Source: Candidatus Lokiarchaeum ossiferum (GTDB lineage Archaea > Asgardarchaeota > Lokiarchaeia > Sigyniarchaeales > Promethearchaeaceae). Taken from it: a stretch of DNA of 64,000 nucleotides. Positions 9,234 through 43,126 of this stretch are shown here, piece after piece. The stretch's first letter is position 1. The number at the start of each line of letters is the position of its first letter. Location: NCBI GenBank assembly GCA_025839675.1, contig CP104013.1, forward strand, positions 3,041,121 to 3,105,120, in the 5' to 3' direction. The notes under the pieces were generated by a model. The model was not told the DNA's origin and ran no database searches. It was given only the letters and a program-made list of their open reading frames with translations. Both the position numbers and the translations under genes were made by a program.

Positions 9234-10952
9234 ATGAATAACAAACAGCTCTATCAAATCTCGAAATATTCTTACAATGAAGCCTATTTACAAAGCCAAT
9301 TGAATATGGCAGGGGCAAATTTGAATACTATAATGGAGAAGATGGAAAAAAATAAAAATTATTTGAAAACCATGAATATTATAACCAAAATAATCATGGT
9401 TGTATATGTATCCCTTCTTATTTTTCTCCCAATCACAGTTTTTATGAATATTAACACAGCCATCGATTTGGGTTATGATTCATGGGCCTATTTCTTGGGA
9501 AGTACAGTTATGGGAGCTTATTTCTTGGTTCAAGTATTATATATGTTGATGTTTGGTCTCTTTTATATAACTGGATTATTCTCCGGAGATGTTTTCAAAT
9601 GGCTTTCAACCTTACCAGTTAAGAAGGATGAGATGGGAAAAATCTGTATATGGACATTCTTCCGTGGAGTTGATGCTCCACTAATAGCCTTAATGTTAGT
9701 ATTTCCAATCGCAACAATTATTGTGACTCAAAACATATTAGTATTTATTGCGAGTATTTTTATTTCTGGATTAAACACCTTGTTTGCTTTTTCGATGTTG
9801 ATCATCTTAGGTAAAAAATTTACTAATCTGGTAAAAAGTGCAGATGCCAATTCTAAAAAGAATCGAACTATTCAAATAGCCTACTATATAATATACATGG
9901 TGGTTACTTTCATTGCGGTCTTAGGATTTCAGAATATCATGCCAGCAATAGAACCACTGTTTGAAAAAGAAATTGTAAATATGGAAATTGTTCTTTCATT
10001 GAATCAAATCATTTCATGGATACCATTTCCACTAAGTGGCGGTTCATTATTAACTGGAGCATTAATAGGATTTAGCAAAATACCGACAATCTCAATTATT
10101 TCATCATTTCTAGGATTAGGAGTATTTTTACTATTAGACATCTATTTAGTCAAAAAAGCCTCAAAAGTTCTCACAGATATAGTTTATGCCAAAGAAACCC
10201 GAAAAGGAGAAGAATTAAAGGAAAGTACTGTAAAAGATGTTCAACTAACAATAATTTCTCCGTTGCAATCTTATCGATCGAAAGATATCCAAATGGTAGG
10301 GCGGGATTTTCAATCTTTGATGATGCTATTAATGCCAGCAATTTTACCGACTCTTGGGTACATAGTAGGATTAACAATGAATGATGAATCAGGAGATTCA
10401 TTTTCAGCATTTAGTACAATATTCATCCTTTATGGAATGATGGGTGCATTTATGCAAACTGTTGGTTTATTTAACCTCGAAAATTCGGGAGCAACTATTA
10501 CAGCAACCTTACCAATAATTCCACGAGATCAAGCGAAGGGAAAATTGCAAATAATGTTTACTGTCTGTATATTTTCAGTTATAATTCCTGGAATCTTCCT
10601 CATTTTCACAAACCCAGTGGAAAATTGGTACTTTATTTACTTTGCAATTCTACCTATTCCATTATTGAGTATTGTTTTGGTTTTCCTTTTGAGAGTTCGC
10701 TTTTTTGGAAAATTGAAATATAAATATGTATTAGAAGAAGTACATTTGGAGAATAAAGCAAGTAAAATGATTGGAATAGGGGCGATTTGTTTAGTTTTTG
10801 GAGTGTTTATTTCTATTCTAGTTGGAGTATTTATCTCTGAAGTGGATCTCTGGATCTTTGTTTCGACTCTATTATCTTCTGAAATAGTAATTGGAGCAAT
10901 TTTCTATTATATCTTTAATAGGATGTTCCCTCGCGCAAAAATCTTTCAATAG
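9234..10952 (+). CDS. ABC transporter permease (multi-TM), partner of upstream ATPase
   Basis: Long hydrophobic ORF immediately after the ATPase. The start was moved from the track's 9186 to the ATG at 9234, 20 nt after the ATPase stop; the start is uncertain. Confidence 0.55.
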   Translation: MNNKQLYQISKYSYNEAYLQSQLNMAGANLNTIMEKMEKNKNYLKTMNIITKIIMVVYVSLLIFLPITVFMNINTAIDLGYDSWAYFLGSTVMGAYFLVQVLYMLMFGLFYITGLFSGDVFKWLSTLPVKKDEMGKICIWTFFRGVDAPLIALMLVFPIATIIVTQNILVFIASIFISGLNTLFAFSMLIILGKKFTNLVKSADANSKKNRTIQIAYYIIYMVVTFIAVLGFQNIMPAIEPLFEKEIVNMEIVLSLNQIISWIPFPLSGGSLLTGALIGFSKIPTISIISSFLGLGVFLLLDIYLVKKASKVLTDIVYAKETRKGEELKESTVKDVQLTIISPLQSYRSKDIQMVGRDFQSLMMLLMPAILPTLGYIVGLTMNDESGDSFSAFSTIFILYGMMGAFMQTVGLFNLENSGATITATLPIIPRDQAKGKLQIMFTVCIFSVIIPGIFLIFTNPVENWYFIYFAILPIPLLSIVLVFLLRVRFFGKLKYKYVLEEVHLENKASKMIGIGAICLVFGVFISILVGVFISEVDLWIFVSTLLSSEIVIGAIFYYIFNRMFPRAKIFQ

Positions 10953-11011
10953 ACAAACAAGTTTATTTGAAAATATACCTTTTTTAAATTTATTCAAACT
11001 TTGGTGTGTAA

Positions 11012-11377
11012 ATGACGACGGAAAAAAATGCTTCGGGAAAAGAAAATAAATTAGCAAATTTAGACCCGTCCACACCCTTTATTCCCGCATCTGAATTAGT
11101 TATCGATAATTTAGAAGCGATTTCATTAATCAAACATGATAAAAAGAAGTTACTTTTGGAATTACTATTACATGAAGAAAAAACAATAATGGACATGAGC
11201 AAAGAAACAGGATGGAATCCTGGCACGGTGAAACGTCATTTGAGTGATCTTGTGGAAGGGGGATTGGTAACTCCATCCAAAATTGTGGTTAATGAATTTC
11301 GAATCAAGTTGAAATATTATCGTGCTACTGCCCGTCAATTTCGATTTCAATTCATTTGGCCCCCTCAGGAAAAATAG
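11012..11377 (+). CDS. ArsR-family winged-helix transcriptional regulator
   Basis: HTH segment IMDMSKETGWNPGTVKRHLSDLVEGGLV in a 121-aa protein. Confidence 0.6.
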   Translation: MTTEKNASGKENKLANLDPSTPFIPASELVIDNLEAISLIKHDKKKLLLELLLHEEKTIMDMSKETGWNPGTVKRHLSDLVEGGLVTPSKIVVNEFRIKLKYYRATARQFRFQFIWPPQEK

Positions 11378-15335: not shown

Positions 15336-18281
15336 CTAAAATTTAATTCCTTTTTTCCTACTTATCAATTTTACCAATTCAAAAGTTCCTATGCAAATGA
15401 AAGAGAAGAAGATACAAATGGACCAATCTACAATGTTGAGCACCATAAATTGAAAATTAAGGCCATTTTTCGCCAGGAATACTTGCAATCCAGGAATATA
15501 GAGGATTGCTAAATATACTACCAGTAGTATCCCCACGACAATAAACATGAATGGATTTCCATCATCTTTAATACTTTTTGCTAATGATTTGTTAGGTCTT
15601 CGAATTTGAAGAGCGAGGGTACATTCACAAAGGAATAAGGTTGTCATTAGCATAGTCAATGTTTTTGCAATTGTTGGATCCACGCCTTCAGATAGATAAC
15701 GGGTAGATTCAGTAAAAAGGTAGAACGAATTGAAATTACCAAAACTATTGTTGGAATCCCGCACAGGAGAAAGAATAGTCCCATAAAAATAAGTCAATAA
15801 CATGCTAACTGCGAGTAAACATCCATAAATTCCCATCAATATTAAAAATTTGTTTGAAATAATTTCTTCAGAATCTCGTGGAGCCTCTTCCATAACATCT
15901 TTGGAGACGCTATCAAAAGTTAAAATCAACCCGGGAAACATGTGCATAGTTAGAGATAGATACACCCACTGGTAGGTAAATGCAGAAGTTAAGAAATAGG
16001 GTTTACCCAAAATAACGTATAATATAAATTGAACAATTCCTTCGAAAAGATTGATACAGATGAAGAAAAAGACAACAGATCTAATATTGGCAAAAATGCC
16101 TCGTCCACGATGAATCCCTTCAACAATAGAACTAAAAGAATCATCAGAAATAACCATATCAGCGGCTTCTTTTGCAACATCCGTTCCTTGAATCCCCATA
16201 GCGACCCCTGCATCTGCCATATTTAAGGCAAGGGCATCATTCACCCCATCTCCTGTCATAGCGACGACTCTTCCTTCATTTTGATACCTTTCCACGATTG
16301 TTTGTTTATGTGTAGGCGACACTCGAGCAAAAACACGGACATCGTTAATGTTTTCGAAATTTTTCTCATCATCGATTTGATTTCCTTCCATCGCAGAATG
16401 ACGTTTATCAGTAATTATCGAAATTTGGGAGCCAATTGCTATAGCTGTATTTAAAGAATCACCTGTAATCATAACTACATCCACCCCAGCACTATGACAT
16501 CTTTCAACGGCGTCTTTCACATCATCACGGGGAGGATCCATGATAGCCACAAATCCAATATAAACTAAATCTGACTCTGCAAGTTCACGTCCTTCTTCAG
16601 TATCGGAGGGAATCTCATCAATTGGTCGATAAGCTAAGCTTAATACGCGGTATCCTTGTCGAGCATATTCATTTATTGTATTCATTACGATTAACTTCAT
16701 TTCAATAATAAAATCAACAGCTTCATTATTTTCGGCAAGCATTTTGTCACAAATATACATTAAGACCTCACTTGCTCCCTTAGTGAAGATAAAATGGTCA
16801 CCTGTCTCATCTTTATAGATTTTACTCATTCTTTTGGCTTGTGATGAAAAAGGGAATTCCATGACTTCTTCAAACTTATCAAGTTTTTGAGGATCATTAA
16901 TTTTAGAATACAAAGCTTTCAGTGCTCCTTCAGTAGGATTACCAATCACTTTCCAATCGGACTGAGATCTCTTCTTTTTATTTTTATCTAATTCAAATTC
17001 ATGCTTGATTAAAGAGGCATTGTTGTTTAATGCCCCCGCTGTTAAAAGCATTTCAAGATGAGGAAATTTTTGGATATCGGTTACTTTTTCAGGAATGGTG
17101 GGATTATCTACTAAAAAGATTTCTCCTTCAGGATTATACCCACTTCCAGTAACTTTGAACCGAGATCCCCGTGTCCAGACATGTTGAACACACATTTGAC
17201 TTTTTGTTAATGTTCCAGTCTTATCGGAACATATTACCGATACTCGACCTAGAGAATCAACAGATGTTAAATTACGGATGATTACACCATGCTCAGCCAT
17301 TTTTAATACCCCCGTTAACATGACGATGGTAGTTAAAAGGGGAATATTAATTGGCATAATATCCATGGCGGAGTTTAGACTCTCTATGATTTTTAATTCT
17401 CCTGTGGAGAGCCATAAAACGATAAGAACGATTAACCAAGCGAGGATAACCCCAATACCGAACCATTTTCCAATATTATTTAATTTAGTACGGATGGGAA
17501 TTTCATTAGAATTCGCTGATTCTAATCCTTGAGAAATTTTTCCTATTTCAGTATCAATGCCAGTTTTGATTACAATAGCAAAACCGGTGCCCGTAGTTAT
17601 AAAAGTTCCATAAAATAAGATATTTTCTTGATTTTGAAGGTGAAGAGGGGTATTTTTCAAAGGTTTTCCATTATTTTTTTTTACTGGTTCACTTTCTCCT
17701 GTAAGAGACGCTTCATTCACACGTAAATTGGCAGATTGAATAATTCGAGCATCTGCAGGAATGCGATCTCCCGGACTTAGAACAAGTAGATCTCCCACAC
17801 AAATTTTTTTTGAGAATATTTCTTGTTTTTGACCACTGCGAATCACTCTCGTTGAGGGGGCAGATAATTCGCGTAATGCATTCAACTTTTTTGTGGCTCT
17901 GGCCTGCTGAAAAATTGCAACTAAACAATTTAGCCCTACAATTGCTAAAGTGATATAAATCATTTTCATATCAGACTCCCCTGAAATCTTTCCAGCAACA
18001 AACATTATTACTGCAGCAATCAAATAAATTATGATTAACCAATTAAACAAAGGAGCGAGATAAACTCTTAAAAAAGATTGTTTGGCTTTAGGAAGCTCAT
18101 TCAATCCATTGCTTAGTAATAATTGTTGAGCTTTTTCATCGGTCAAACCTTTTTTTGGATCTGTTTGAAATTCTTGAAAAATTTCATCTAATTCATAAGC
18201 CCAAAGAAATTTATTTTCCACATTAAGAATGTAATTTGTTATATCGTAAAAAAATTTATATTCAGAATTTCTCAAAAACAA
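15336..18281 (-). CDS. cation-transporting P-type ATPase (P2-like)
   Basis: TGES (LTGESEP), phosphorylation site ICSDKTGTLT, TKGASE, MITGD, hinge TGDGVNDALAL, about 10 TM helices. 981 aa. Confidence 0.85.
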   Translation of the reverse strand: MFLRNSEYKFFYDITNYILNVENKFLWAYELDEIFQEFQTDPKKGLTDEKAQQLLLSNGLNELPKAKQSFLRVYLAPLFNWLIIIYLIAAVIMFVAGKISGESDMKMIYITLAIVGLNCLVAIFQQARATKKLNALRELSAPSTRVIRSGQKQEIFSKKICVGDLLVLSPGDRIPADARIIQSANLRVNEASLTGESEPVKKNNGKPLKNTPLHLQNQENILFYGTFITTGTGFAIVIKTGIDTEIGKISQGLESANSNEIPIRTKLNNIGKWFGIGVILAWLIVLIVLWLSTGELKIIESLNSAMDIMPINIPLLTTIVMLTGVLKMAEHGVIIRNLTSVDSLGRVSVICSDKTGTLTKSQMCVQHVWTRGSRFKVTGSGYNPEGEIFLVDNPTIPEKVTDIQKFPHLEMLLTAGALNNNASLIKHEFELDKNKKKRSQSDWKVIGNPTEGALKALYSKINDPQKLDKFEEVMEFPFSSQAKRMSKIYKDETGDHFIFTKGASEVLMYICDKMLAENNEAVDFIIEMKLIVMNTINEYARQGYRVLSLAYRPIDEIPSDTEEGRELAESDLVYIGFVAIMDPPRDDVKDAVERCHSAGVDVVMITGDSLNTAIAIGSQISIITDKRHSAMEGNQIDDEKNFENINDVRVFARVSPTHKQTIVERYQNEGRVVAMTGDGVNDALALNMADAGVAMGIQGTDVAKEAADMVISDDSFSSIVEGIHRGRGIFANIRSVVFFFICINLFEGIVQFILYVILGKPYFLTSAFTYQWVYLSLTMHMFPGLILTFDSVSKDVMEEAPRDSEEIISNKFLILMGIYGCLLAVSMLLTYFYGTILSPVRDSNNSFGNFNSFYLFTESTRYLSEGVDPTIAKTLTMLMTTLFLCECTLALQIRRPNKSLAKSIKDDGNPFMFIVVGILLVVYLAILYIPGLQVFLAKNGLNFQFMVLNIVDWSICIFFSFICIGTFELVKLISRKKGIKF

Positions 18282-19045
18282 TCAAATTTAGAACAAAAAT
18301 TCTTTGTAATTTGAGTCAAGAAAGAATCTAATTTTTGATAAAGATAGTCTGTAATTTTCTTATCTAATGTTCCATAGTACGCATGAGCAATGCCACCAGT
18401 AATACAAGCAAGTGTGTCACTATCCCCACCAAGTGAAACAGCAAGACGAATTGAATGGAGAAAATTATCAGACTCTAAAAATGCTCGAATCGCGGGTGGA
18501 ACTGTACCTTGACAAGACACATCAAACTTATAAGAAGGCCGAATTGAGTCAAGTGAAATTGACAAATCATATCCGAAATGAGATTCTATAAAATCTTTAA
18601 TATATTTTTTTGATTTCCCAATTCTTGCAAAATAAATTGAAATGGCCGTTGCTTGAGCCCCTTTGATACCTTCTTCATGATTGTGAGTTACTTCTGCAGA
18701 TTTTTTTGCTTCCATAAGTACTGATTCAATTGTGTTATAAACAAATCCAATGGGCGAGACTCGCATAGCAGATCCATTTCCCCATGAATTATAGGGTTCG
18801 CTATGTTCTAAAGCTGCCCAGTGTCGAAAACTCGTTCCATAACTTTCGTCTGGATATAATTTATAGAATTTCCTTAAATTCTTAACGTAATCAGTTCCCG
18901 AGAGAATAGATTCTGCAAGAGCAATTGTTAGCACAGAATCATCTGTAAAAAAAGCTTCCGGATTAAATATTTCAAAATTGGTTGTTTTAATATTATTCCA
19001 TTCATATAGAGAGCCAACAATATCTCCAAAAATCGCTCCAATCAA
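18272..19045 (-). CDS. ADP-ribosylglycohydrolase family protein (DraG/ARH-like)
   Basis: N-terminal GAIFGDIVGS...FTDDS and C-terminal GGDSDTLACITGGIAHAYYG (binuclear metal-site motifs of the ARH family). The stop overlaps the ATPase start by 10 nt. Confidence 0.7.
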   Translation of the reverse strand: MIGAIFGDIVGSLYEWNNIKTTNFEIFNPEAFFTDDSVLTIALAESILSGTDYVKNLRKFYKLYPDESYGTSFRHWAALEHSEPYNSWGNGSAMRVSPIGFVYNTIESVLMEAKKSAEVTHNHEEGIKGAQATAISIYFARIGKSKKYIKDFIESHFGYDLSISLDSIRPSYKFDVSCQGTVPPAIRAFLESDNFLHSIRLAVSLGGDSDTLACITGGIAHAYYGTLDKKITDYLYQKLDSFLTQITKNFCSKFDCF

Positions 19046-19107: not shown

Positions 19108-19896
19108 CTAAATTAAATTGCGTTTCACAATTTCTTCTACCATAAAAGAGGCAACTGCATCCGCGTACTTCCCAGGACCAAATCCTGCATCAAATCCTAA
19201 CTCCTTAGCAAGATCATTAGTTAAACGGGGACCTCCAGCAATTAAAACAACTTTATCTCGAATTCCTTCTGCTTCAATCAATTCCACAAGTTCAGTAAGG
19301 TTTTGAATATGAACCCCTTTTTGTGTGACTGTCTGGGATACTAACATAACATCTGCTTTCAACTCAATAGCCTTTCTAATAAATTCTTCATTAGGAACTT
19401 GAGCCCCAAGATTATAAGCATCAACCATAGAATAGCGTTCTAAGCCATAATGCCCCATATAACCTTTCATGTTCATGATTGCATCAATTCCAACTGTGTG
19501 AGCATCAGTTCCAGTAGTAGCCCCTACAACAACTACATTTCGTTTGATATTATTTTTAATATATTCATCTGTTTCTTTCATGCTCATGGTTTCTACTTCA
19601 ATAGCTTGAACTTTAATGGCATTATAATCAATAGAAGGAATAGCACTTCCATAGACAACGAAAAAGGTGAATTCCTTATCCAATGCTTCGTGATAAACTA
19701 CATCCGGTTCAAGGAACCCTAATTTCTCAGTATATTGTCGAGCAACTTCAACCGCTTTATCGCCATCTGGTATCGGTAATGTGAAACTTAACTGCACTTT
19801 ACCATCGTTCATTGTATCCCCGTAGGGTTTTAACTTACTTAAATCGAGATGTGTATCAAAATTATGTTTTTTTGAAGAATATAATCCGCCACCCAT
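19108..19896 (-). CDS. kamE: lysine 5,6-aminomutase beta subunit (cobalamin-binding)
   Basis: Rossmann B12-binding domain with a DxHxxG-type motif (TGTDAHTVGID). Abuts kamD with no gap. Confidence 0.8.
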   Translation of the reverse strand: MGGGLYSSKKHNFDTHLDLSKLKPYGDTMNDGKVQLSFTLPIPDGDKAVEVARQYTEKLGFLEPDVVYHEALDKEFTFFVVYGSAIPSIDYNAIKVQAIEVETMSMKETDEYIKNNIKRNVVVVGATTGTDAHTVGIDAIMNMKGYMGHYGLERYSMVDAYNLGAQVPNEEFIRKAIELKADVMLVSQTVTQKGVHIQNLTELVELIEAEGIRDKVVLIAGGPRLTNDLAKELGFDAGFGPGKYADAVASFMVEEIVKRNLI

Positions 19897-21489
19897 TTAA
19901 TTTTCGCCTCCAATATTCAATTCTCTAGCCATTTGTTCCATGAAAGGATTGAAATATTCCTTTTCGCGCAAAGCAACTCCATCAAGACCTTTTCCACCAT
20001 CAATGGGTCGTTTCACACCAGCAAATTTTCCTTGGGATAACGCTTCAAATAAACCTTGCAACTCAATCTCCTTAATTAAGGCGTTTGCTTCTGATAAAAC
20101 TTTCTTGACGCGTTGTTCCATAATTCCCCCTTCTTTGAAAGAAATTTCTGAGCCCAAATCAGCCATATTATTAAAAATATACTTTGCATTCTCAATTGCT
20201 AAGGCGCGATCCTGCATAAATGGTGTGTGAATCGCTTCCGTTAACATACCTAAAAGACAAATTTTTTGATTGGTCATAATTGTGATGGCATTAAACAAAG
20301 TATCTTGGATATGACCTTTGAAAATATTCCCTGTCATAAATTTTGTGGGAGGCATATACTTTAATGGTGCATTTGGAAAGATTTCTCGAGCCATTTGGGC
20401 TTGAGCCAATTCGTAAAGAAAACCATTTTTTATGTTGGGGTTCATTTCAAAAGCATGACCTAACCCCATTTGATTTTCTTGAAGTCCAGCAAGTTTAGCA
20501 AATTGCTCATTGATAAATTGAGAGGTTAAGACAGTATGGGCTTCTTCGAAGGCATCGGAAGTAGTTAAGTAATTATCTTCTCCAGTATTAATTATTACAC
20601 CTGCATAGGCATTAATCATACGTGAGAAATATTGATCGATCATAGTGCGTTTCATATTGATATCCCGAAAAAGAATACCATATAAGGCATCATTTAACAT
20701 CATATCTAGACGTTCAAAAGCACCCATTGCTGCAATTTCTGGCATACATAGTCCCGAACAATAATTAGTTAAGCGAATATAGCGCCCTAATTCTTCCCCA
20801 GTTTCATCCAAAGCTTTTCGCATGATTCTAAAATTTTCTTGTGTAGCATATGTTCCACCAAATCCTTCAGTAGTTGCCCCATATGGAACATAATCTAAGA
20901 GAGATTGTCCTGTAGTTCGGATAACTGCAATTACATCAGCACCTTGTTTAGCAGCGGCTTGAGCTTGAGTAATATCCTCATAGATGTTTCCTGTCGCTAC
21001 AATAACATAAATAAATGGTCCAGATTTATCTCCATATTTCTCAAGCATTTGATTCCTTTTAGAACGATTTTCTTTGATTAATTCCAAGTTATGCTTAACT
21101 ACATCTTGGATGGCTAACCTTATCTCGAAAGTATCATGGGGAGGCAATTTGGTTAAGTCTATTTCCTTTTGGCTTACTTTTTCAGCTATTTCTTGAGGAG
21201 ATAATTTCGTTTCAAGCATTGCGTTTCCAATGAAATAAGCAGCACCAGTTCCTAATCCATTTCCTTGTTTGATATTTTCCACCACAACATTTGGTAAAGG
21301 AACTTCAAAATCATTTATGCCATCAATGCCCATTAATCGACATACAGTCCGCTCAACGGACACAGTAGTATGTTGATCAATGAAATTTTGCATTTCACTT
21401 GCGATTTTCCGGGCAGAATTTCGGGCTTCTTTCACAATTGCAAATTTTAGATGCAATTTACTGTCATTCTGAGTTGTCATATTGATCAT
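19897..21489 (-). CDS. kamD: lysine 5,6-aminomutase alpha subunit (PLP/TIM-barrel)
   Basis: 530 aa. The N-terminus (SKLHLKFAIVKEARNSARKIA...HTTVSVERTVCRLMGIDG) aligns with bacterial KamD as recalled. The start may be the ATG at 21480; either way it overlaps the upstream gene. Confidence 0.85.
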   Translation of the reverse strand: MINMTTQNDSKLHLKFAIVKEARNSARKIASEMQNFIDQHTTVSVERTVCRLMGIDGINDFEVPLPNVVVENIKQGNGLGTGAAYFIGNAMLETKLSPQEIAEKVSQKEIDLTKLPPHDTFEIRLAIQDVVKHNLELIKENRSKRNQMLEKYGDKSGPFIYVIVATGNIYEDITQAQAAAKQGADVIAVIRTTGQSLLDYVPYGATTEGFGGTYATQENFRIMRKALDETGEELGRYIRLTNYCSGLCMPEIAAMGAFERLDMMLNDALYGILFRDINMKRTMIDQYFSRMINAYAGVIINTGEDNYLTTSDAFEEAHTVLTSQFINEQFAKLAGLQENQMGLGHAFEMNPNIKNGFLYELAQAQMAREIFPNAPLKYMPPTKFMTGNIFKGHIQDTLFNAITIMTNQKICLLGMLTEAIHTPFMQDRALAIENAKYIFNNMADLGSEISFKEGGIMEQRVKKVLSEANALIKEIELQGLFEALSQGKFAGVKRPIDGGKGLDGVALREKEYFNPFMEQMARELNIGGEN

Positions 21490-22984
21490 TTTTTTCCATT
21501 TGATTGTATTGATTTTTCGCGTATTTTACAATGTTATCAGTTAATCCAAGCAAAATAGCTATATTAAGAGCATCCTTAGGAACAATGCTGTCATGTTGAA
21601 CGCGTTCCAAACGATAATCCATATGTTCTTGAATAATTTGAATAGATGTATATTTTTGAGAGGATTGAAGGTCAATTTTGTGTTTTAGGGAAAGAAAATC
21701 GACATTTTTTAGTCCCATCACTTGATAATGTGCGAATTTTTTATTAGAAATACCTTCATAGTGTGTAGTTATAAGAGAAATTGCATTTTGGGAGTTTAAA
21801 TACTGGGTTAAAGCCTTGATTAAAATTGTTCCTTCTGACGGATTTGTTCCTCGGGCAAATTCATCCATTACTATGAAGGAAAATTTTTTGGGAAGAGAAG
21901 AAATTATTTGATTAACAGTAATTATCTCAGCTCCAAAAGTGGACAAACCTGCAGAAACATCTTGCATATCATCAGAAACAAAATATAGATTATCAAACAA
22001 GGGGATTTGAACAGATTTTGCAAATACAAAAAATCCATAATGAGCAAGCAGTACATTTAGGAAGAGAGTTTGCAAGGAAACTGTTTTTCCTCCCATATTT
22101 GCGCCAGTGATAATCGTCACTCCCAAATCGAGATCAATTGATATCGGTGTAAATTGCTTTTCTGATTGATTTAAAATCGATTGAACATAAGGATTTATAG
22201 ATCTTTTAATTTTAATACCCTGATTTGAAGAAATCTGAGGTTTAACCCCCCCAAATTCTAAAGCAAGTTTCGCTTTGGAGATCCAAAAATCAAAAAGTCC
22301 TAATTTGGTAATATTGTCCAAATATAGGGTAGTGTATTGCCGAAGTTGAAAGGAAAGGGATTTTTTAACATTAAGTTCTTCTTCGCGTTCTAATATCACT
22401 ACATCTAATCGTTCTTCCTTAAGTTGTTTTATTAACTCCGAATCTTGCGTTTGAAAGATTTTAGTTTCAAGTGATCTCTTCCTTTCACGAATTTTCTGAA
22501 GGGAATCAGAATAAGAATCATAAAGATAAAAAGTAGGAATATTTGTCTGATTTGGATCTAATAAAGAAATTACTTGTTTAAAGGAAGTAAAATCCATTTC
22601 GGGTAGGGATAGGTGCAAACTTTGCACTTTCGAAGAAAAATCCTCAAAATCCATGGCAAATTTCTTTAATTCAAAAATCTCAACTTCATCCAATATTTTC
22701 GTTTCTTGAAGATTTAATAAGGATCGTCGGATATCTCTTAATTTTGGAAGAATATAGTCAATTTTTTTATGGATTGAACTATTTTTTTGAATTGAACTAC
22801 AAAGACATCCAATATTTGAAAGTTCTGTTATTAGAAGCTCCTTTTCAGAAGGGGAGAACCTCCGTAAATTATTTTTCAATTCTTTCCCAAAGGGAGTTAA
22901 AGTATCCAGCTTGTTAAGAAGAAAAGTAAATCCAATAGTATCCAAATTCTCTTGAGTTAGCCCTATCATTTTAATTACCTCCAA
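21464..22984 (-). CDS. MutS-like ABC-type ATPase (MutS domain V only)
   Basis: Walker A ITGANMGGKTVSLQ, Walker B IVMDEF, TTHY motif. No mismatch-binding or connector domains; N-terminal helical region only. Confidence 0.65.
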   Translation of the reverse strand: MEVIKMIGLTQENLDTIGFTFLLNKLDTLTPFGKELKNNLRRFSPSEKELLITELSNIGCLCSSIQKNSSIHKKIDYILPKLRDIRRSLLNLQETKILDEVEIFELKKFAMDFEDFSSKVQSLHLSLPEMDFTSFKQVISLLDPNQTNIPTFYLYDSYSDSLQKIRERKRSLETKIFQTQDSELIKQLKEERLDVVILEREEELNVKKSLSFQLRQYTTLYLDNITKLGLFDFWISKAKLALEFGGVKPQISSNQGIKIKRSINPYVQSILNQSEKQFTPISIDLDLGVTIITGANMGGKTVSLQTLFLNVLLAHYGFFVFAKSVQIPLFDNLYFVSDDMQDVSAGLSTFGAEIITVNQIISSLPKKFSFIVMDEFARGTNPSEGTILIKALTQYLNSQNAISLITTHYEGISNKKFAHYQVMGLKNVDFLSLKHKIDLQSSQKYTSIQIIQEHMDYRLERVQHDSIVPKDALNIAILLGLTDNIVKYAKNQYNQMEKNDQYDNSE

Positions 22985-24029
22985 CTAGATCAAAAATTGG
23001 TAGGGATATTTTACATCTTAAAGTCGAAAGGAATTGCTTCGGATCAAATTCATATCCAAGAGGTGAAAACGGATTAGCAGTTAGGCATAAAATCTTAATG
23101 GGGGAAAGAACTAAAATTTTACCTCCTGTTTTTTCATATTGATACAATATATCCTTTGATAAAAATAATTTTGTACCATCTGCCACCAACAGTGTAAATT
23201 CTTTATATAAAAGAGAGTTTTCCATTAATCTGATGAGCAAATTATCACTTACAGCACCTTTGATAACTAAATATTGCATATCTTTGGATAAAGAATTGAT
23301 TATCTCAAGTTCAGAATCTAAAGCAGTAGTCATCTGAAGATTTTTTACGATCTCATTCTTATCAATAATCCCAACTCGAGAGATCTGTTCAGTCAATTTC
23401 ATAATATGGGGATTTTTTAACTTATCAAAGGAGAGCAATCTCACGGTATGAGCAGTCATTTCAGAAACGGCATCCATATTTCTTGAAAGACTCGCCCCAG
23501 TTGCGAGAATTGTGGCATCAGTGATTGAAGGGGCAGCAAACGTTTTCCGGCTTAAAGCACCATCCACTAAAACAAGTTCACAGCCTAATTTAAGTAATTC
23601 ATTACAGATTTGTGACAGATATTCGGTTTGCGAGGGACCAGCAATCTCAATATATCCATCACTTAAAGCTCGAACAATAATGATTTCTCCCAGTGGAGTT
23701 CCAATACAAGTATTTGCAAGAATTTCTTTGGTGATATCACTTTGCTCTACACATTGTTTAGCAGTAGCGATAATTGTTCCTTTTTCAATATAAATACGGG
23801 GTTTAGCGGTAGCCGTAACAACATCTATGGTTTCTCCATCTCTTCCGATGGAAGTTAACCCTAATTTGTAACGGGTGCGTATTCGTGAAATTATAAAATT
23901 CAGAGTGGTTGTTTTCCCCACATTTTTTTCCATACCAATTATTGAAACTGTTTGATAATGAACAAGCTGTTGGATTATTCGATCAACTTCAAAGTTTTCT
24001 AAGGTATTTCTTGAACTCATAGTTTTCAA
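22971..24029 (-). CDS. P-loop NTPase of unknown function
   Basis: Walker A GMEKNVGKTTT near the N-terminus. Overlaps MutS-like by 14 nt and lies between kamA and the MutS-like gene. Confidence 0.5.
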   Translation of the reverse strand: MKTMSSRNTLENFEVDRIIQQLVHYQTVSIIGMEKNVGKTTTLNFIISRIRTRYKLGLTSIGRDGETIDVVTATAKPRIYIEKGTIIATAKQCVEQSDITKEILANTCIGTPLGEIIIVRALSDGYIEIAGPSQTEYLSQICNELLKLGCELVLVDGALSRKTFAAPSITDATILATGASLSRNMDAVSEMTAHTVRLLSFDKLKNPHIMKLTEQISRVGIIDKNEIVKNLQMTTALDSELEIINSLSKDMQYLVIKGAVSDNLLIRLMENSLLYKEFTLLVADGTKLFLSKDILYQYEKTGGKILVLSPIKILCLTANPFSPLGYEFDPKQFLSTLRCKISLPIFDLVGGN

Positions 24030-24079
24030 TCCAACATTTCTAGGGGTATGGGGTGTTAGATAAAAAAAAAAGGATGAAT

Positions 24080-25348
24080 TTATTCCTTTTTGATATTTCG
24101 TTTGTGGCGTTCAAGATTTGCGGGTTCAATGGTAATGCCTTCCCCATGTTTTCCCTTACTATGAATAAGTCCTGCAACACCTACGAGATGATTGTATTCT
24201 TCCTCATATTCATCATTCACAATTCCGGGTTTATAATTCTCTGGCTCATCATAGCGACAAATAACACCTTCATAATTACGTAGGATCACTTTTTGATTAC
24301 TTTGCGAAATTACGTAATTGGGCATAACTGGAATTTTTCCCCCACCACCAGGTGCATCAACAATGTAAGTGGGAACGCAGAACCCAGAAGTATGCCCGCG
24401 TAAACCTTCCATAATTTCAATTCCCTTAGAGACAGTTGTCCTAAAATTGAGTAAACCTATTGATAAATCACATTGATACACATAATATGGTCTAACACGT
24501 ATTTTCACTAATTCATGCATCAATTTCTTCATGGTATAAACAGAATCATTTACTCCACGAAGCAATACAGATTGATTTCCAAGAGGAATTCCTGAATTTG
24601 CCAACATTGCACATGCTTGTTGAGATTCGGGAGTAATTTCATGAGGATGGTTAAAATGAGTGTTAAGCCATACCGGATGATATTTTTTGATGATATTACA
24701 TAATTCTGGGGTTATTCGTTGCGGCATCACTACGGGAACCCGTGATCCGATCCGAATGATTTCCACATGAGGAATTTCTCTCAGATTTTTAATAATATAT
24801 TCCAAACGAGTATCAGAAACCAAGAGCGCATCCCCTCCCGAGAGCAGAACATCTCTAACTTTAGGATTATTTCGGATATAATCTATCCCTTGATCAATTT
24901 GATCTTGTTTTAACTGTTTGTCATGGTGACCTGCAAATCTTCGGCGGGTACAATGACGGCAATACATAGAACATTGATCAGTAATTAAGAATAGCACACG
25001 GTCAGGATAACGGTGGGTTAACCCTGGTACGGGGGAATCGGTGTCCTCATGTAAAGGATCTTCAATATCAGCATCACATGAGTAAGTTTCGGCAATTGTT
25101 GGTACACTTTGAAGTTTAATTGGATCCATCGGATCATTAGGATCAATCAAAGATAAATAATAAGGAGTAATTGCCATTCTAAATTTTTCAACACAACCCC
25201 GAGCGCTTTCTTCTTCTTCCTTTGTCAATGGCAAAAATGTTTTTAGAGCCTCAACCGACTCAATACGATTCTTCACTTGCCATTTCCAATCGTTCCAGAG
25301 CTCATCTGAAACATCCCCAAACAATTCCGCTCTTCTATTGACTTTCAT
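24080..25348 (-). CDS. kamA: L-lysine 2,3-aminomutase (radical SAM)
   Basis: Radical-SAM CxxxCxxC (CSMYCRHCTRR), LSGGDAL, C-terminal PGGGGK PLP region. 422 aa. Confidence 0.9.
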   Translation of the reverse strand: MKVNRRAELFGDVSDELWNDWKWQVKNRIESVEALKTFLPLTKEEEESARGCVEKFRMAITPYYLSLIDPNDPMDPIKLQSVPTIAETYSCDADIEDPLHEDTDSPVPGLTHRYPDRVLFLITDQCSMYCRHCTRRRFAGHHDKQLKQDQIDQGIDYIRNNPKVRDVLLSGGDALLVSDTRLEYIIKNLREIPHVEIIRIGSRVPVVMPQRITPELCNIIKKYHPVWLNTHFNHPHEITPESQQACAMLANSGIPLGNQSVLLRGVNDSVYTMKKLMHELVKIRVRPYYVYQCDLSIGLLNFRTTVSKGIEIMEGLRGHTSGFCVPTYIVDAPGGGGKIPVMPNYVISQSNQKVILRNYEGVICRYDEPENYKPGIVNDEYEEEYNHLVGVAGLIHSKGKHGEGITIEPANLERHKRNIKKE

Positions 25349-25422: not shown

Positions 25423-26556
25423 TTATACATATTTTTCTTCAAACATTTTTCGAAGAATTGGGCTTTCACGGAGTATTTCGAGCGTGATTTCTGCGTGATC
25501 CTTGCAATATCCATTTCCAATGATCATATTAACATCCTTTCCAACACCTTCAGCACCTAAAGCCGCTTTAGTAAAGCTGGTTGCCATTGAGAAGAAATAC
25601 ACAATTCCATCATCTTTACATGGGAGGATACAAGACATTTCACAATCTGGAACATTTAAACAGTTGATTACAATATCAACTTCTTCGCCGCCAGTTGCTT
25701 CCAATGTTTTTTCATAGATGTCGATAGGACTCTTGGCGTTAGCGATAACAGCTTTATGACAGAATCCATATTCCATCATATATTTAGCACGATCTTCATT
25801 GCGAGCATTTCCCAAAATCAATCCCGTTGGACCTGCACGTTTTCGAGCTTCATAAGCACACATCATCCCAGATTTGCCCGTTGCACCTAGAATTAAAACT
25901 TTTTGACCAGGTTTAACTAATTTTGCAGTTTGAGCAGGAGCCCCAGCAACATCTAAAGCGGCTAAAGCAACAGCTTCACTGAAATCTTCTGGAATTTTAG
26001 AATATATTCCACTTTCAAATAAAATAGCTTTACCAGTAATGTCAGCTCGATCAATATTCATATTCAATTTGTGAATTTTATCAATTCGGAGTGGAGTAAG
26101 GCTTAAACTAACCAATGTAGCGATTTTATCACCAACTTTTAAATCGATTTTCCCTTCTAAGTCTTTTCCAATTTTTTCAACTTTTCCTAATAACATTCCA
26201 CCACTGCCAGTGTCAGGATTTCGATGTTTGCCTTGCATTTCCACAATTTCAAACATTCTTGCTTTCATCTTTTCCTCATCAGCTCCACAGCTTTCTTTAA
26301 TTTGGTGGAAACTTGCGGAATCAATATTTAACGATTGGACGTCAATGAGAATTTCGTTATCGTAAAGAACATCCATGTTGTTGTCGAGTTTATCACAATT
26401 TTGCGGAAGAGCACCTTTGGGTGCAATGACACGGTGTACACCGAATTTTGAACCTTGAACCATTTTTTCTAACTCCAAATAATTCTTCACTCTTTGAGGT
26501 AAGGAATCTAAAAAGTGAATCTTATGAGAATTAAGGTGATGATATATTAAAATCAC
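25423..26556 (-). CDS. kdd: L-erythro-3,5-diaminohexanoate dehydrogenase
   Basis: 377 aa, MDR/Rossmann-like (ILGATGKSG dinucleotide motif); position and size match the Kdd of lysine fermentation clusters. Confidence 0.7.
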   Translation of the reverse strand: MILIYHHLNSHKIHFLDSLPQRVKNYLELEKMVQGSKFGVHRVIAPKGALPQNCDKLDNNMDVLYDNEILIDVQSLNIDSASFHQIKESCGADEEKMKARMFEIVEMQGKHRNPDTGSGGMLLGKVEKIGKDLEGKIDLKVGDKIATLVSLSLTPLRIDKIHKLNMNIDRADITGKAILFESGIYSKIPEDFSEAVALAALDVAGAPAQTAKLVKPGQKVLILGATGKSGMMCAYEARKRAGPTGLILGNARNEDRAKYMMEYGFCHKAVIANAKSPIDIYEKTLEATGGEEVDIVINCLNVPDCEMSCILPCKDDGIVYFFSMATSFTKAALGAEGVGKDVNMIIGNGYCKDHAEITLEILRESPILRKMFEEKYV

Positions 26557-28247: not shown

Positions 28248-28748
28248 CTAAGGATCCAGATGAAGGGTTTCGTCATCGAGGCACAATTTTTTTTGATCTT
28301 CCTTAATCACATGGGATATCACGAGAGTTTCCAATTTTTCCACTAAATTGGATTTCATGATTTTCGAATAGACACGCTCCATAAAAGATTTGTTATCTTG
28401 GGTTTTGACCAAGATCAGAAAGTTTTGAGCCCCTAAAATGAAATAAACCGCCCATACTTCTTCCATTCCAACTAAGAGGGATTTCATCTTTTCAACCGAA
28501 TCTTCGTGAAATTTTGCGGAAAGCAAAACAGCCGAAAGAAATTCATCTGAATGAGAAGTAAGATTCACATCAGCATGATAACCTTGAATTATTTGTTCTT
28601 CTTCCAATCGTTTAATTCGGTAATGAATGGTGGAAAGGGATACATGTAATTTTTCAGCGAGTTTTCCATATGGAATCCGGCAGTCTCTTTGTAACTCATT
28701 TAGAATTTGTTTATCAATATTATCCAAAAAACTTCGACGATTTGACAT
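28248..28748 (-). CDS. Lrp/AsnC-family transcriptional regulator
   Basis: N-terminal HTH (ILNELQRDCRIPYGKLAEKLHVSLSTIHYRIKRLEE) plus C-terminal RAM domain. Confidence 0.8.
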   Translation of the reverse strand: MSNRRSFLDNIDKQILNELQRDCRIPYGKLAEKLHVSLSTIHYRIKRLEEEQIIQGYHADVNLTSHSDEFLSAVLLSAKFHEDSVEKMKSLLVGMEEVWAVYFILGAQNFLILVKTQDNKSFMERVYSKIMKSNLVEKLETLVISHVIKEDQKKLCLDDETLHLDP

Positions 28749-28865: not shown

Positions 28866-30119
28866 TTATAAAATTGACATCATATCCTTTAAAGTGCGTG
28901 ATACCAGGAAAAGTTGAATATTTCGGCTCCCTCCAATCACTTCTTGCACTTTACTTACCTCAAGTGCTTTATCCACCCGTAAATTATCGGTAAATGCAAT
29001 TCCTCCGCAAATATGTTGGGTTTCATAAGCAATACGATGAGCAAGGTTTGAGGTTAAGAATTTTGTCCCGGAGCTGAACGCGGCATTATATTTGACGAAT
29101 TTTTGATCTGGATATTTCAATAACTTTCGATATTCAATACCCGTTGTAAGTCCGAGAACTGTGGCAGACATCAATTCTGTGAATAGTTTTGTAATTGGAA
29201 AAGACACACCTTGATTATTAAATATGGGTTTTCCAAATTGTTGGCGATTATTGGTATAAATAAGCGAAGTAATAGCTGTAAGCCAACCTATTCCTAAACT
29301 AGAGCCAATAATAGTATCCCGTTCGGCAACTAAACCGGTGAATAAGTTTTTGTAACCTTGTCCTCGCCCACCAATAATGTTTTCTTTGGGCACTTTCACA
29401 TTACTAAAAATTGTTTGACCAATTTCCACTCGAGGAACAGAATTGATTCCAAGTCGATGAGTTTCTAATCCTTTAAAATCCCTTTCTATTATGCCTTGAT
29501 ACATGGTTCCCCGAGGATTCGTTACATCGGATACCCCATAGGCAATAAAATAATCCGCTACAGGTCCATTGGTAGTATATACTTTCTCCCCATTAAACAC
29601 CAAGTGATCATTATTATCTTGAACCGTAGTTTTCATGTTGACCGCATCGGATCCTTGAGTGCGTTCGGTAATACAAATACAGCCGACTTTTCGACCAGAG
29701 ATTGTTTCGGCAAGGATTTCTTGTGCTCGATCCGTACTGCCATGTTGAAAGATTGGATTGGTAAAAATTAACCCAGAGACAACTCGAGCGAGATCTAATT
29801 CAGGATCCATGATTGTAGTGGCCATTGCGAGAAGCAATTCATAACGCATCCCATAATGTTCCATATCCCCAAATTTATTCAATCGTTGCATATAGTTCTT
29901 TTTACCCAATATTGGAAAAAGATCATAGACTTCTTTGGAATAATCCAGTTTGGGCTCTATTTCTTTCAACAAAAAATCTTCTAATTCATAGAGAAATGCC
30001 CGCTCTTCCTCCGTTATTAGAGGTGTTATAAAATTATTGAAAATCTTGTAAATATTTTTAGTAGAGAGTTTCTTCTTTATCTCCCCATCCAATATATCAA
30101 CGCCAGTCATGATGTCCAT
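28866..30119 (-). CDS. acyl-CoA dehydrogenase family protein
   Basis: ACAD C-terminal helical domain (GGIAFTDNLRVDKALEVSKVQEVIGGSRNIQ), catalytic-base region, 417 aa. Confidence 0.8.
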   Translation of the reverse strand: MDIMTGVDILDGEIKKKLSTKNIYKIFNNFITPLITEEERAFLYELEDFLLKEIEPKLDYSKEVYDLFPILGKKNYMQRLNKFGDMEHYGMRYELLLAMATTIMDPELDLARVVSGLIFTNPIFQHGSTDRAQEILAETISGRKVGCICITERTQGSDAVNMKTTVQDNNDHLVFNGEKVYTTNGPVADYFIAYGVSDVTNPRGTMYQGIIERDFKGLETHRLGINSVPRVEIGQTIFSNVKVPKENIIGGRGQGYKNLFTGLVAERDTIIGSSLGIGWLTAITSLIYTNNRQQFGKPIFNNQGVSFPITKLFTELMSATVLGLTTGIEYRKLLKYPDQKFVKYNAAFSSGTKFLTSNLAHRIAYETQHICGGIAFTDNLRVDKALEVSKVQEVIGGSRNIQLFLVSRTLKDMMSIL

Positions 30120-38170: not shown

Positions 38171-38463
38171 AAAAATTAACTAATTGATTTCCCATGCAAT
38201 TTTGATGGAATAGATTTGATTAAATTGCTTGAAACTCAAATAGAATGAATTCTTTTCTTTTCAATATATCTTTATTTCAAATTCAATATTCATTTATCGT
38301 CTTAAAATCAATTTTTTTCAATTATATGAAATGAATCATTTCTGTTCCCCCTTTTTTTTTACTAAATTACCTATCTTTTCTCTTTAGCTAAAAATTAGAT
38401 CACATTTTTAATCGAATACAATATAAACAAAATTATTGCATTTTTACTCATGAGGTGATACCA

Positions 38464-39708
38464 ATGGTAGAAAAATTAAAACTTGAAAAATCCGAACAAT
38501 ATTACAAAGAAGCTCTTGAAGTAATTCCAGGTGCCATTTTGGGAATACGTAGACCCTATAATTTTGTTGTAGGTGAATATCCTATCTTTTTTGAAAGCGC
38601 TGATGGTGGAAAAGTGAAAGATGTTGATGGAAATGAATATATCGATATGCTTTGTGCATATGGACCTATTATCATAGGGCATAAGGAAAAAGAGATTGAT
38701 GATGCAGTTATTGCTCAGATACAGAATAAAGGATTCTGTTTCTCCCTTACCCAAGAAATCCAAAATAAACTGGCAAAAAAACTTACCGAATTGATCCCAT
38801 CATGTGAAAAAAGTGTGTTTGTGAAAACAGGATCAGACGCAACCACAACGGCAGTTAGAGTCGCACGAGGATATACAGATCGAACAAAAATTTTGCGCTG
38901 TGGCTATCATGGATGGCATGATTGGTGTGTAGAAGTAAAGGGTGGAGTTCTCCCAAAGACTTATGAGGATGTAATCGAATTTGAATATAACAATTTAGAG
39001 CAGGTAAAAGAATTATTTGAAAAGTATGGACCTGAAATAGCTGGAGTTATCATTACTCCAGTAGGACACCCTCTTGCACATGAAGTAGAGATGCCAAAAC
39101 AGGGATTTTTGGAAGGTATTCGAGAGATTACAGAAAAAAATGGAACTGTACTCATTTTTGATGAGATTCGGAGCGGATTTCGAGTGAATTTGGGCGGAGC
39201 CCAAAAAGAATTTGGAGTTACACCCGATATGTCCGTCTTTGGGAAAGCGATTGCCAATGGCTATCCTATTGGTGTGGTGGTAGGTAAAAGCGAATTTATG
39301 GATGTATTAGCAGACAAAGTGTTTTTAAGTTCCACATTCTTCCCAAACAGTTTGGCTCAAGTCGCTGCGCTGAAAACCATTGAAATTATGGAACGAGATA
39401 AGATTTTGGATGTGATCAGAGAAAAAGGGACAAAATTCGGAGCTATGATTGAAAAAATCATCAAAGAAAGCGGAATTGCGTGTACTTTTTCCGGTGCTCC
39501 TTGGATGCCCTTTATCACCTTTGATCATGATCCTAACAAGTTATATAAGAAATTGCGGAATGAATTCTATACCCGTTTAATCCGTCGAGGTGTTTTCCTC
39601 CAACCATATCATCATGGTTACATTGCTTACCGTCATTCCGAGGAGGATTTAGAATATGTGGCAAAAGTTATCAAAGAATCTCTAGAAGAATTAAAACAAT
39701 TTCTATAA
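38464..39708 (+). CDS. class-III aminotransferase of the glutamate-1-semialdehyde 2,1-aminomutase (HemL) family; candidate acyl-CoA beta-transaminase (Kat-like) or hemL
   Basis: VIPGAILG...DVDGNEYID...TGSDATTTAVRVARGYT...GYHGWHD...IFDEIRSGFRV...FGKAIANGYPIG (PLP-Lys in FGK) is colinear with HemL. The ATG at 38464 lies 6 nt after SD GAGGTGA; the track's 38455 is a GTG. Confidence 0.75.
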   Translation: MVEKLKLEKSEQYYKEALEVIPGAILGIRRPYNFVVGEYPIFFESADGGKVKDVDGNEYIDMLCAYGPIIIGHKEKEIDDAVIAQIQNKGFCFSLTQEIQNKLAKKLTELIPSCEKSVFVKTGSDATTTAVRVARGYTDRTKILRCGYHGWHDWCVEVKGGVLPKTYEDVIEFEYNNLEQVKELFEKYGPEIAGVIITPVGHPLAHEVEMPKQGFLEGIREITEKNGTVLIFDEIRSGFRVNLGGAQKEFGVTPDMSVFGKAIANGYPIGVVVGKSEFMDVLADKVFLSSTFFPNSLAQVAALKTIEIMERDKILDVIREKGTKFGAMIEKIIKESGIACTFSGAPWMPFITFDHDPNKLYKKLRNEFYTRLIRRGVFLQPYHHGYIAYRHSEEDLEYVAKVIKESLEELKQFL

Positions 39709-39819: not shown

Positions 39820-40641
39820 ATGGAAAAATTGATCATAACCGCAGCGATAAGCGGTGCAGAAGTGATGAAGGAACATAACCCAGCGGTTCCATACACAATT
39901 GAAGAAATTGGAAGAGAAGCAGAATCAGCCTATAAAGCGGGAGCAAGTATCATTCATTTACATGTGCGAAATGATGATGGAACTCCTACCCAAGATAAAG
40001 CACGATTTCAAGCTTGTATGGAGGAAATTCGAAAACGTTGCTCAGATGTTATAATCCAACCTTCGACCGGTGGGGCAGTAGGAATGACCGATGATGAACG
40101 TTTACAACCGACAGAGTTATCTCCAGAAATGGCCACCCTCGATTGTGGAACCTGTAATTTTGGAGGGGATGATATTTTTGTCAATTCAGAAAACACCATT
40201 AAAAATTTCGCCATAAAGATAAAAGAACGCGGAATCAAACCCGAATGCGAATGTTTTGAAAAGGGACATATTGACATGGCCATTAAAATGCACAAGAAAG
40301 GATTGATTGATGCCCCAATGCACTTTAATATGGTGTTAGGAGTTTCAGGAGCAATGAGTGCCACCCCTCGAGATTTGACGTTTATGGTAGATAGTATTCC
40401 TTTGGGCTCAACCTTCACTGTATGCGCGATGGGGCGATATCAAATGCAAATGGCCGCAATTTCAATAGTACTCGGCGGACATGTTCGAGTGGGTTTTGAG
40501 GACAATGTCTATATTTCTCGAGGAGTGCTCGCCAAATCAAATGGAGAATTGGTGGAAAAAGCAGTTAGAATTGCAAAAGAGTTAGGGCGAGAAATTGCAA
40601 CTCCTGCCGAAACTCGAAAAATACTGGGATTAGTAAAGTAA
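39820..40641 (+). CDS. kce: 3-keto-5-aminohexanoate cleavage enzyme (BKACE/DUF849 TIM barrel)
   Basis: IITAAISGAE...IIHLHVRNDDG...PSTGGAVG...RVGFEDN with zinc ligands H-H-E conserved. Near-colinear with bacterial Kce as recalled. Confidence 0.8.
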   Translation: MEKLIITAAISGAEVMKEHNPAVPYTIEEIGREAESAYKAGASIIHLHVRNDDGTPTQDKARFQACMEEIRKRCSDVIIQPSTGGAVGMTDDERLQPTELSPEMATLDCGTCNFGGDDIFVNSENTIKNFAIKIKERGIKPECECFEKGHIDMAIKMHKKGLIDAPMHFNMVLGVSGAMSATPRDLTFMVDSIPLGSTFTVCAMGRYQMQMAAISIVLGGHVRVGFEDNVYISRGVLAKSNGELVEKAVRIAKELGREIATPAETRKILGLVK

Positions 40642-42442: not shown

Positions 42443-43126
42443 TTAAGCGGTGATGGGGGAACCATCATCCATTCGTTTAAGTTGGGGTGACACTTGATAA
42501 TCAGCTTCCGTATATTTACGAATTTCGTCCAGCGAAGAATCTTTCTGAATTTCTTTTAAAATCAAACCTTGGGGTGTTACTTCAAATAAACCAAATTCGG
42601 TAATGATTTTATCAACAACTTTAGCTCCAGTGAGCGGTAAAGAACATTTTTTCAAAATTTTTGGGGATCCTTTGGCTGTATGGAACATAGCAACAATAAC
42701 TTGCTTAGCCCCTGTCACGAGATCCATTGCCCCACCCATCCCCGGAATAAATTTTCCCGGAACGGCCCAATTTGCCAAATTTCCCTCTTGATCTACTTCA
42801 AAAGCGCCCAAAATGGTGGAATCCAAATGACCTCCACGAACTATTCCAAAGGAGGTTGGACTGTCAAAATAAGAACCATAATCTTCAATGGTGACATAAA
42901 CACCACCAGCATTAGTCAAGTCTTTATCAATAGCTTCTGAAGGAGCATCTGCACCCATCCCAACCAACCCATTTTCGGAATGGAAAATGACATTAACATC
43001 CTTAGATATAAATTGAGGGACCATCATGGGAACTCCAAAACCTAAATTGACGACTTGGCCATCCTTTAATTCTTTAGCTACACGCTTGGCAATAACAATG
43101 TTGGCTTCTTTTCTGTCGTTGATCAC
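42443..43126 (-). CDS. atoA: 3-oxoacid/acetate CoA-transferase subunit B
   Basis: SENGLVGMG catalytic-Glu motif; 227 aa; start overlaps subunit A stop. Confidence 0.8.
   Translation of the reverse strand: MINDRKEANIVIAKRVAKELKDGQVVNLGFGVPMMVPQFISKDVNVIFHSENGLVGMGADAPSEAIDKDLTNAGGVYVTIEDYGSYFDSPTSFGIVRGGHLDSTILGAFEVDQEGNLANWAVPGKFIPGMGGAMDLVTGAKQVIVAMFHTAKGSPKILKKCSLPLTGAKVVDKIITEFGLFEVTPQGLILKEIQKDSSLDEIRKYTEADYQVSPQLKRMDDGSPITA

Follow-up and report, generated by a model that had tools for sequence, protein, structure and literature searches.

Damaged cobalamin is released from adenosylcobalamin (AdoCbl)-dependent enzymes in an ATP-dependent manner by DdrAB, GdrAB, EutA and the glutamate mutase protein GlmL/MutL. 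Toraya & Mori (1999) are cited by reviews in this context. For the B12-dependent lysine 5,6-aminomutase (KamDE), reviews describe the native enzyme as a core, E1, together with E2, a 'sulfhydryl' protein of about 80 kDa that activates it with the help of ATP; E2 has been known biochemically as an ATP-dependent activating protein since the 1970s. Recombinant KamDE is active without E2 but inactivates itself during turnover, in which the cofactor is lost to oxidation and the dead cobalamin remains bound to the enzyme. A stretch of 64,000 nucleotides from the Asgard archaeon Candidatus Lokiarchaeum ossiferum (contig CP104013.1, positions 3,041,121 to 3,105,120; hereafter the window) carries two open reading frames (ORFs), kamB and kamC, that very probably encode the ATP-dependent reactivase of KamDE.

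KamB and KamC of Fusobacterium nucleatum reportedly co-purify, and the KamBC complex is said to hydrolyse ATP and to replace the hydroxocobalamin on inactivated lysine 5,6-aminomutase with AdoCbl. Ornithine 4,5-aminomutase is reportedly not acted on, and the complex is said to be unrelated to other B12 chaperones. The reactivase function is thus already known, being published in 2024 and curated in NCBI annotation models, and is not a new function. Darbyshire & Wolthers (2024, Biochemistry 63:913) are cited in the context of lysine fermentation by F. nucleatum. Genes labelled 'HP' and 'mutS' had been drawn, with no function given, in lysine clusters of Fusobacterium, a Bacteroidetes contig and Cloacimonas (Perret et al. 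2011). The names KamB or KamC were not found together with aminomutase in the open-access full-text literature. These names are already attached to many homologues in RefSeq and UniRef, and UniRef gives the window's own KamC this name. An earlier note on this DNA proposed from the letters alone that the two genes encode an ATP-dependent reactivase or chaperone of lysine 5,6-aminomutase, which agrees with the curated function; its remark that no reactivase had been assigned is outdated in view of the 2024 paper and of E2. The result is therefore of limited value as a discovery and of more use as a check, in that a reader of raw sequence recovered the function from gene context.

Both proteins pass the curated equivalog models of NCBIfam release 20. 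KamB scores 409 bits against NF052386 ('lysine 5,6-aminomutase reactivase subunit KamB'; cut-off 210), and the match runs over residues 28-347 of the longest ORF and model positions 1-325 of 326. KamC scores 548 bits against NF052383 ('lysine 5,6-aminomutase reactivase ATPase KamC'; cut-off 300), with residues 17-492 matching model positions 1-507 of 508. The match spans the full length in each case, and chance can be set aside because the scores lie far over the family thresholds. Pfam and NCBIfam models place the two genes in a row on the minus strand in the order kdd, kamA, kamB, kamC, kamD and kamE. The gene for the reactivase subunit, kamB (22971..24020), encodes 349 residues (38.6 kDa) from an ATG at 24020, and that for the reactivase ATPase, kamC (21464..22969), encodes 501 residues (57.5 kDa) from an ATG at 22969. 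Ahead of them lie kdd for L-erythro-3,5-diaminohexanoate dehydrogenase (25423..26556; NF052381, 261 bits, cut-off 200) and kamA for the radical S-adenosylmethionine enzyme lysine 2,3-aminomutase (24080..25348; TIGR03820, 625 bits, cut-off 525). They are followed by the genes of the client enzyme itself, kamD (19897..21489; Pfam Lys-AminoMut_A, 903 bits; NF052384, 924 bits) and kamE (19108..19896; Pfam OAM_dimer and B12-binding; NF052385, 394 bits). The NF052381 match in the kdd ORF starts only at residue 39, and the kdd start probably lies downstream of the GTG of the longest ORF.

The longest ORFs of the pair, 22971-24029 (352 residues) for kamB and 21464-22984 (506 residues) for kamC, both begin with TTG on the minus strand. 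The deposited KamB (349 residues) and KamC (501 residues) are 100% identical to the shorter versions started with ATG. The kamB stop codon, TAA, occupies 22973-22971, and the ATG of kamC begins 1 nucleotide past it, so that the two genes are nearly contiguous and not overlapping. A GGAGG ribosome-binding motif, read directly from the minus-strand sequence, stands at 22978..22982, within the 3' end of kamB and 8 nucleotides upstream of the kamC ATG. Deposited KamD has 530 residues and starts at the ATG at 21489, which makes the overlap of kamC and kamD 26 nucleotides; with the ATG at 21480 as the start it would be 17 nucleotides. The ATG of kamE immediately follows the kamD stop codon. The earlier note had seen two ATPase ORFs between kamA and kamDE, and they are there on the minus strand; of the two overlaps it gave, the one of 26 nucleotides stands with the deposited KamD start, and the one of 14 nucleotides is an artefact of choosing the TTG start. 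The tight packing of the four genes is real and is arranged for co-expression.

The gene order is conserved far beyond this genome. A KamB scan with one genome per species returned 512 relatives, and the best 80 were examined with 10-kb flanks. The kamD gene lies directly downstream of kamB or of kamB-kamC in 77 of these best 80 loci, and the other 3 contigs end earlier. All Clostridia-type loci (59/59) keep the order kdd-kamA-kamB-kamC-kamD-kamE as far as the contig reaches. When contexts were seeded with KamD instead (n=7), KamB was present in 7/7 and KamC in 6/7. The co-occurrence of the pair with kamDE, which had been suggested as a check on the reactivase idea, is thus borne out for the canonical family, with kamD adjoining KamB in 77/77 testable loci. 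Among the Asgard archaea, the same six genes followed by a gene for a P-type ATPase (type 1 operon) occur in L. ossiferum, Harpocratesius and Promethearchaeum syntrophicum. The idea that L. ossiferum is alone among Asgards in having kamC was rejected, as the latter two carry it.

Identities between L. ossiferum and Harpocratesius (locus L081, 5250-7910) are 86% for Kdd, 77% for KamA, 80% for KamD and 75% for KamE, and fall to 43% for KamB and 36% for KamC. Judged from these sequences, KamB and KamC appear to evolve much faster than the surrounding enzymes, which fits an accessory factor. L. ossiferum KamB is 58% identical to that of Clostridia and 43-48% to that of its closest Asgard relatives. 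In neighbour-joining trees, KamB and KamC are unresolved on long branches, and KamA and KamD unite the three type 1 Asgards. Replacement of kamBC in L. ossiferum by a clostridial copy is unsupported, and faster evolution of KamB and KamC accounts for the identities equally well.

Pfam assigns KamC to MutS_V only (residues 291-495, 90.6 bits). In the AlphaFold model (predicted local distance difference test score, pLDDT, 87), residues 1-240 form an all-helical core or lever with long paired helices, and the ATPase follows (240-500). Foldseek places the whole length of this model onto the MutS2 cores of Bacillus subtilis (7qv3), Thermotoga maritima (9kce) and Thermus thermophilus (7vuf) with template modelling (TM) scores of 0.67-0.75, and these cores rank ahead of mismatch-repair MutS. 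The nucleotide-binding motifs of KamC are intact: the Walker A motif GANMGGKT (residues 289-296, minus strand 22082..22105; identified by motif and homologue alignment), the signature STFGAE, the Walker B motif DEFARGTNP and TH(Y) are invariant across 24 homologues. Similarity to MutS and MutS2 in sequence and fold would also be expected of a MutS/MutS2 paralogue that acts on nucleic acids, in DNA repair, recombination control or ribosome rescue, and stands in the operon by chance. This is close to excluded. KamC reaches 167 bits against the endonuclease MutS2 model TIGR01069, for which the cut-off is 400, and covers only model positions 230-456 of 790; against the mismatch-repair MutS models TIGR01070 and PRK05399 it reaches 102 and 115 bits, with cut-offs of 642 and 480. 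Domains I and II (mismatch-binding and connector), the clamp, KOW and Smr are found in neither the model nor the protein. The clamp is absent because no β-strand is present ahead of residue 240 in the model, and KOW and Smr are absent because the ATPase is the last domain of the protein, which stops at residue 501. Furthermore, the place of the gene between kamB and kamD is kept across Clostridia and Asgard archaea. As modelled, KamC is a stripped MutS2-type engine that consists of a lever and an ATPase, and is neither an ATPase domain alone nor a nucleic-acid enzyme. The earlier note rightly doubted a role in DNA repair; its statement that only the ABC ATPase domain is present is true of Pfam only, as the model adds a helical domain of about 240 residues. 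KamC would be the second case, after the ribosome-splitting MutS2, of a MutS engine that works on a target other than DNA.

KamB is a protein of a different class. Its model (pLDDT 84) consists of two α/β domains, an N-terminal P-loop NTPase of the SIMIBI type, which resembles dethiobiotin synthetase, and a C-terminal α/β domain. The SIMIBI class of KamB corresponds to the group of dethiobiotin synthetase, MinD and SRP. The Walker A motif GMEKNVGKT (residues 29-37, minus strand 23910..23936; matched by regular expression) is of the GX5GKT form of dethiobiotin synthetase. Across 23 homologues there is no variation at G29, K32, N33, G35, K36, T37 and T38, or at the cysteine C90. The family motifs GxxKNxGKTT, LGLTSIGRDGE, DGAxxRK, DGTK and NPxSPxGY are all present in the window protein, and a motif scan of KamB found neither the NKxD motif of guanine specificity nor the DxHxxG motif of cobalamin binding. 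No Pfam family was matched. Against the PDB, a sequence profile search of KamB gave no match, and Foldseek gave none at E < 1e-3; in structure it comes closest to dethiobiotin synthetase and DUF1611, not to G3E proteins. A profile search with KamB returned 2213 clusters at 50% identity (E <= 1e-3). Nearly all of the best 150 members listed are 290-370 residues long, and none of these has a fused extra domain, so that the family, as far as its sequences tell, is compact.

These folds and the published function suggest how the pair would work. KamDE would now and then destroy its cofactor by converting cob(II)alamin to inactive cob(III)alamin, which would stay bound. KamBC would dock on the damaged enzyme and, at the expense of ATP, loosen the contact between the KamD barrel and the B12-binding domain of KamE, thereby allowing the dead cobalamin to leave and fresh AdoCbl to bind. 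KamC, an ABC ATPase with long lever helices that resembles the MutS2 core, would supply the ATP-driven conformational work, and is probably dimeric. Recognition of KamDE and/or handling of the cofactor probably falls to KamB, because it is always found next to kamD. We infer both this division of labour and the activity of the pair in the archaeon.

Several results weigh against the view that KamB and KamC act together as a dedicated reactivase of KamDE. To begin with, the function of the archaeal pair is a prediction from protein families and gene context. Second, kamD-kamE follows kamB directly in a type 2 Asgard operon, which occurs at 21 loci of the scan and in one Hodarchaeota genome, 22 in all (L049, L056-L058, L061-L063, L065, L066, L068-L070, L072-L080 and L084; kamB at about 10001-11030 in most). 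No KamC-like sequence lies within 10 kb in these operons even at E <= 10, and KamC is therefore not universally required in cis. Type 2 KamB is of normal length and shows a systematic change in its Walker A motif, G35S, which converts GKT to SKT, as well as K159R. Another ATPase in place of KamC was looked for by clustering all ORFs of the 21 loci, and no conserved candidate emerged. As a separate observation, two loci without kamC have ORFs of 588-594 residues between kamA and kamB (L065, 8084-9850; L078, 6119-7897 and 8093-9877), which encode TPR-repeat proteins with a weak C-terminal match to a RING finger (C3HC4).

The type 2 operons lend support to the chief alternative, in which the essential factor for reactivation or cofactor loading is KamB by itself, probably as a nucleotide-dependent homodimer that would correspond to the classical E2, and KamC is an accessory enhancer or regulator. 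KamB adjoins kamD in every testable locus, and KamC is missing from the 22 Asgard operons with no conserved substitute ATPase nearby. SIMIBI NTPases usually act as dimers. A KamB dimer would have a mass of 77 kDa and a 1:1 pair of KamB and KamC one of 96 kDa, so that the reported value of about 80 kDa for E2 fits the KamB dimer better than the heterodimer. The invariant C90 also fits a 'sulfhydryl protein'. However, kamC stands between kamB and kamD in 59/59 Clostridia-type loci and in the three type 1 Asgard genomes, NCBIfam names KamC as the reactivase ATPase, and the complex used for F. nucleatum reportedly was a co-purifying KamBC. Moreover, kamC could sit elsewhere in the genomes whose operon does not contain it. 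We therefore regard sole action of KamB as unlikely, and a reactivase made up of both KamB and KamC remains the preferred reading.

The third group of observations concerns relatives of the pair away from kam operons. In metagenome-assembled genomes of Clostridia/Eubacteriales (L091/L092, 5082-10347), a tight operon encodes an NTP-transferase, KamB, KamC, an uncharacterised 231-residue protein and a galactokinase-like GHMP kinase. At L090 (551-3925) the order is a PhzF-like gene, KamB, KamC and SelO/YdiU, and at L093 (281-2263) a lone KamB-like gene lies beside the gene for mannose-6-phosphate isomerase. Two of these three divergent KamB-like genes thus have a KamC-like partner, and kamDE is absent from the contig at hand in each case. 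A fourth divergent KamB member has the ordinary kamA-kamB context. The pairs of L090 and L091 both pass the NCBIfam 'equivalog' cut-offs, and a BLAST-based split of 150 KamB representatives into those nearer to kam-context members and those nearer to out-of-context members gave no clean separation. The KamB/KamC module may therefore have other clients, or may be encoded apart from kamDE.

From the same three loci it could be argued that the pair is a general chaperone of cobalamin or another cofactor, with several client enzymes and no exclusive tie to KamDE. This is very unlikely, since canonical full-length KamB is always beside kamD in the sample (77/77 and 7/7), and since KamBC reportedly leaves ornithine 4,5-aminomutase unaffected; the three loci, for their part, may simply belong to genomes that encode kamDE at another place. 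Tentatively, and with more doubt than confidence, the type 2 operons and the divergent genes can be combined in one scheme: KamB would be the universal core and KamC optional, many Asgard kam operons would be KamB-only with an SKT Walker A motif, and the divergent KamB-like genes, with a KamC-like partner in two of three cases, would serve clients other than KamDE in operons of sugar-nucleotide or other type. If this is true, the NCBIfam 'equivalog' names are too specific for part of the family, and the module of MutS core and SIMIBI NTPase is a more general device for enzyme repair or cofactor loading. The Asgard operons without kamC and the KamB/KamC-like genes away from kamDE raise the question of which subunit does the repair, and they are the only parts of this analysis that might repay further work.

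Other features surround the operon in the window. At the kamA stop codon, a 7-bp stem (AAAAGGA/TCCTTTT) is followed by ten T (24062-24071), the whole lying at 24062-24090 on the minus strand. Oligo-T tracts such as this one, which stands immediately upstream of kamB, are able to stop or attenuate transcription in archaea. A scan for bacterial-type promoters and terminators gave nothing above the shuffled expectation, and this stem and T-run is not among its matches. Between kamE and the gene for a P-type ATPase (15336-18281) lies a gene of the ADP-ribosylglycohydrolase family (DraG-like, Pfam 116 bits; 18272-19045, minus strand), which overlaps the start of the P-type ATPase gene by 10 nucleotides. 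No DraG-like gene is present at this place in the other two type 1 Asgards, Harpocratesius and P. syntrophicum, where kamE is followed by the P-type ATPase gene, with one opposite-strand ORF of 151 residues in between in Harpocratesius. In addition to the kam operon, the window holds a nearly complete gene set for lysine fermentation. On the plus strand are kce (39820-40641; NF052387, 448 bits) and a gene for a hemL-like aminotransferase (38455-39708), which is similar to Kat, an enzyme of the alternative pathway (Perret 2011). On the minus strand are the genes for coenzyme A (CoA)-transferase subunits A and B (42443-43782), a thiolase (44479-45753), an acyl-CoA dehydrogenase (28866-30119) and an Lrp/AsnC regulator (28248-28748).

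Compared with described systems, the window pair is closest to bacterial KamB and KamC (NF052386 and NF052383), with which it shares the families, the position between kamA and kamD, the lengths and the motifs; identities to the nearest bacterial members are about 58% for KamB and about 52% for KamC. The host is an Asgard archaeon instead of a bacterium, and the function of the archaeal copy is a predicted one. E2 of the clostridial β-lysine/D-lysine mutase, described by the Stadtman laboratory in the 1970s as ATP- and thiol-dependent, is like KamBC an auxiliary activator or reactivator of E1 (KamDE); it is defined biochemically only, at about 80 kDa, and may correspond to KamBC (96 kDa) or to a KamB dimer (77 kDa). 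KamC shares with the MutS2 core of B. subtilis, T. maritima and T. thermophilus the fold of lever/core and ABC ATPase and the ATPase motifs, but is without KOW, Smr and the β-clamp and stays below the TIGR01069 cut-off; the clients of MutS2 are DNA or ribosomes, whereas that of KamC would be a B12 enzyme. The G3E GTPase chaperones of methylmalonyl-CoA mutase, MeaB/MMAA/ArgK, differ from KamB, which is without NKxD and continues for about 150 residues as an additional C-terminal domain, and for want of NKxD KamB is not a member of the G3E metallochaperone class (MeaB/ArgK, UreG, HypB). Finally, the reactivases of diol and glycerol dehydratase (DdrAB and GdrAB) and of ethanolamine ammonia-lyase (EutA), together with GlmL/MutL, do the same job as KamBC. 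They have actin/Hsp70-like (ASKHA) folds, whereas fold searches lead from KamB to P-loop SIMIBI proteins only and from KamC to MutS-type proteins with an ABC ATPase only, neither having the ASKHA-type fold of DdrA, GdrA, EutA and GlmL. Because the folds differ in this way, KamBC looks like an independent invention relative to the ASKHA reactivases.

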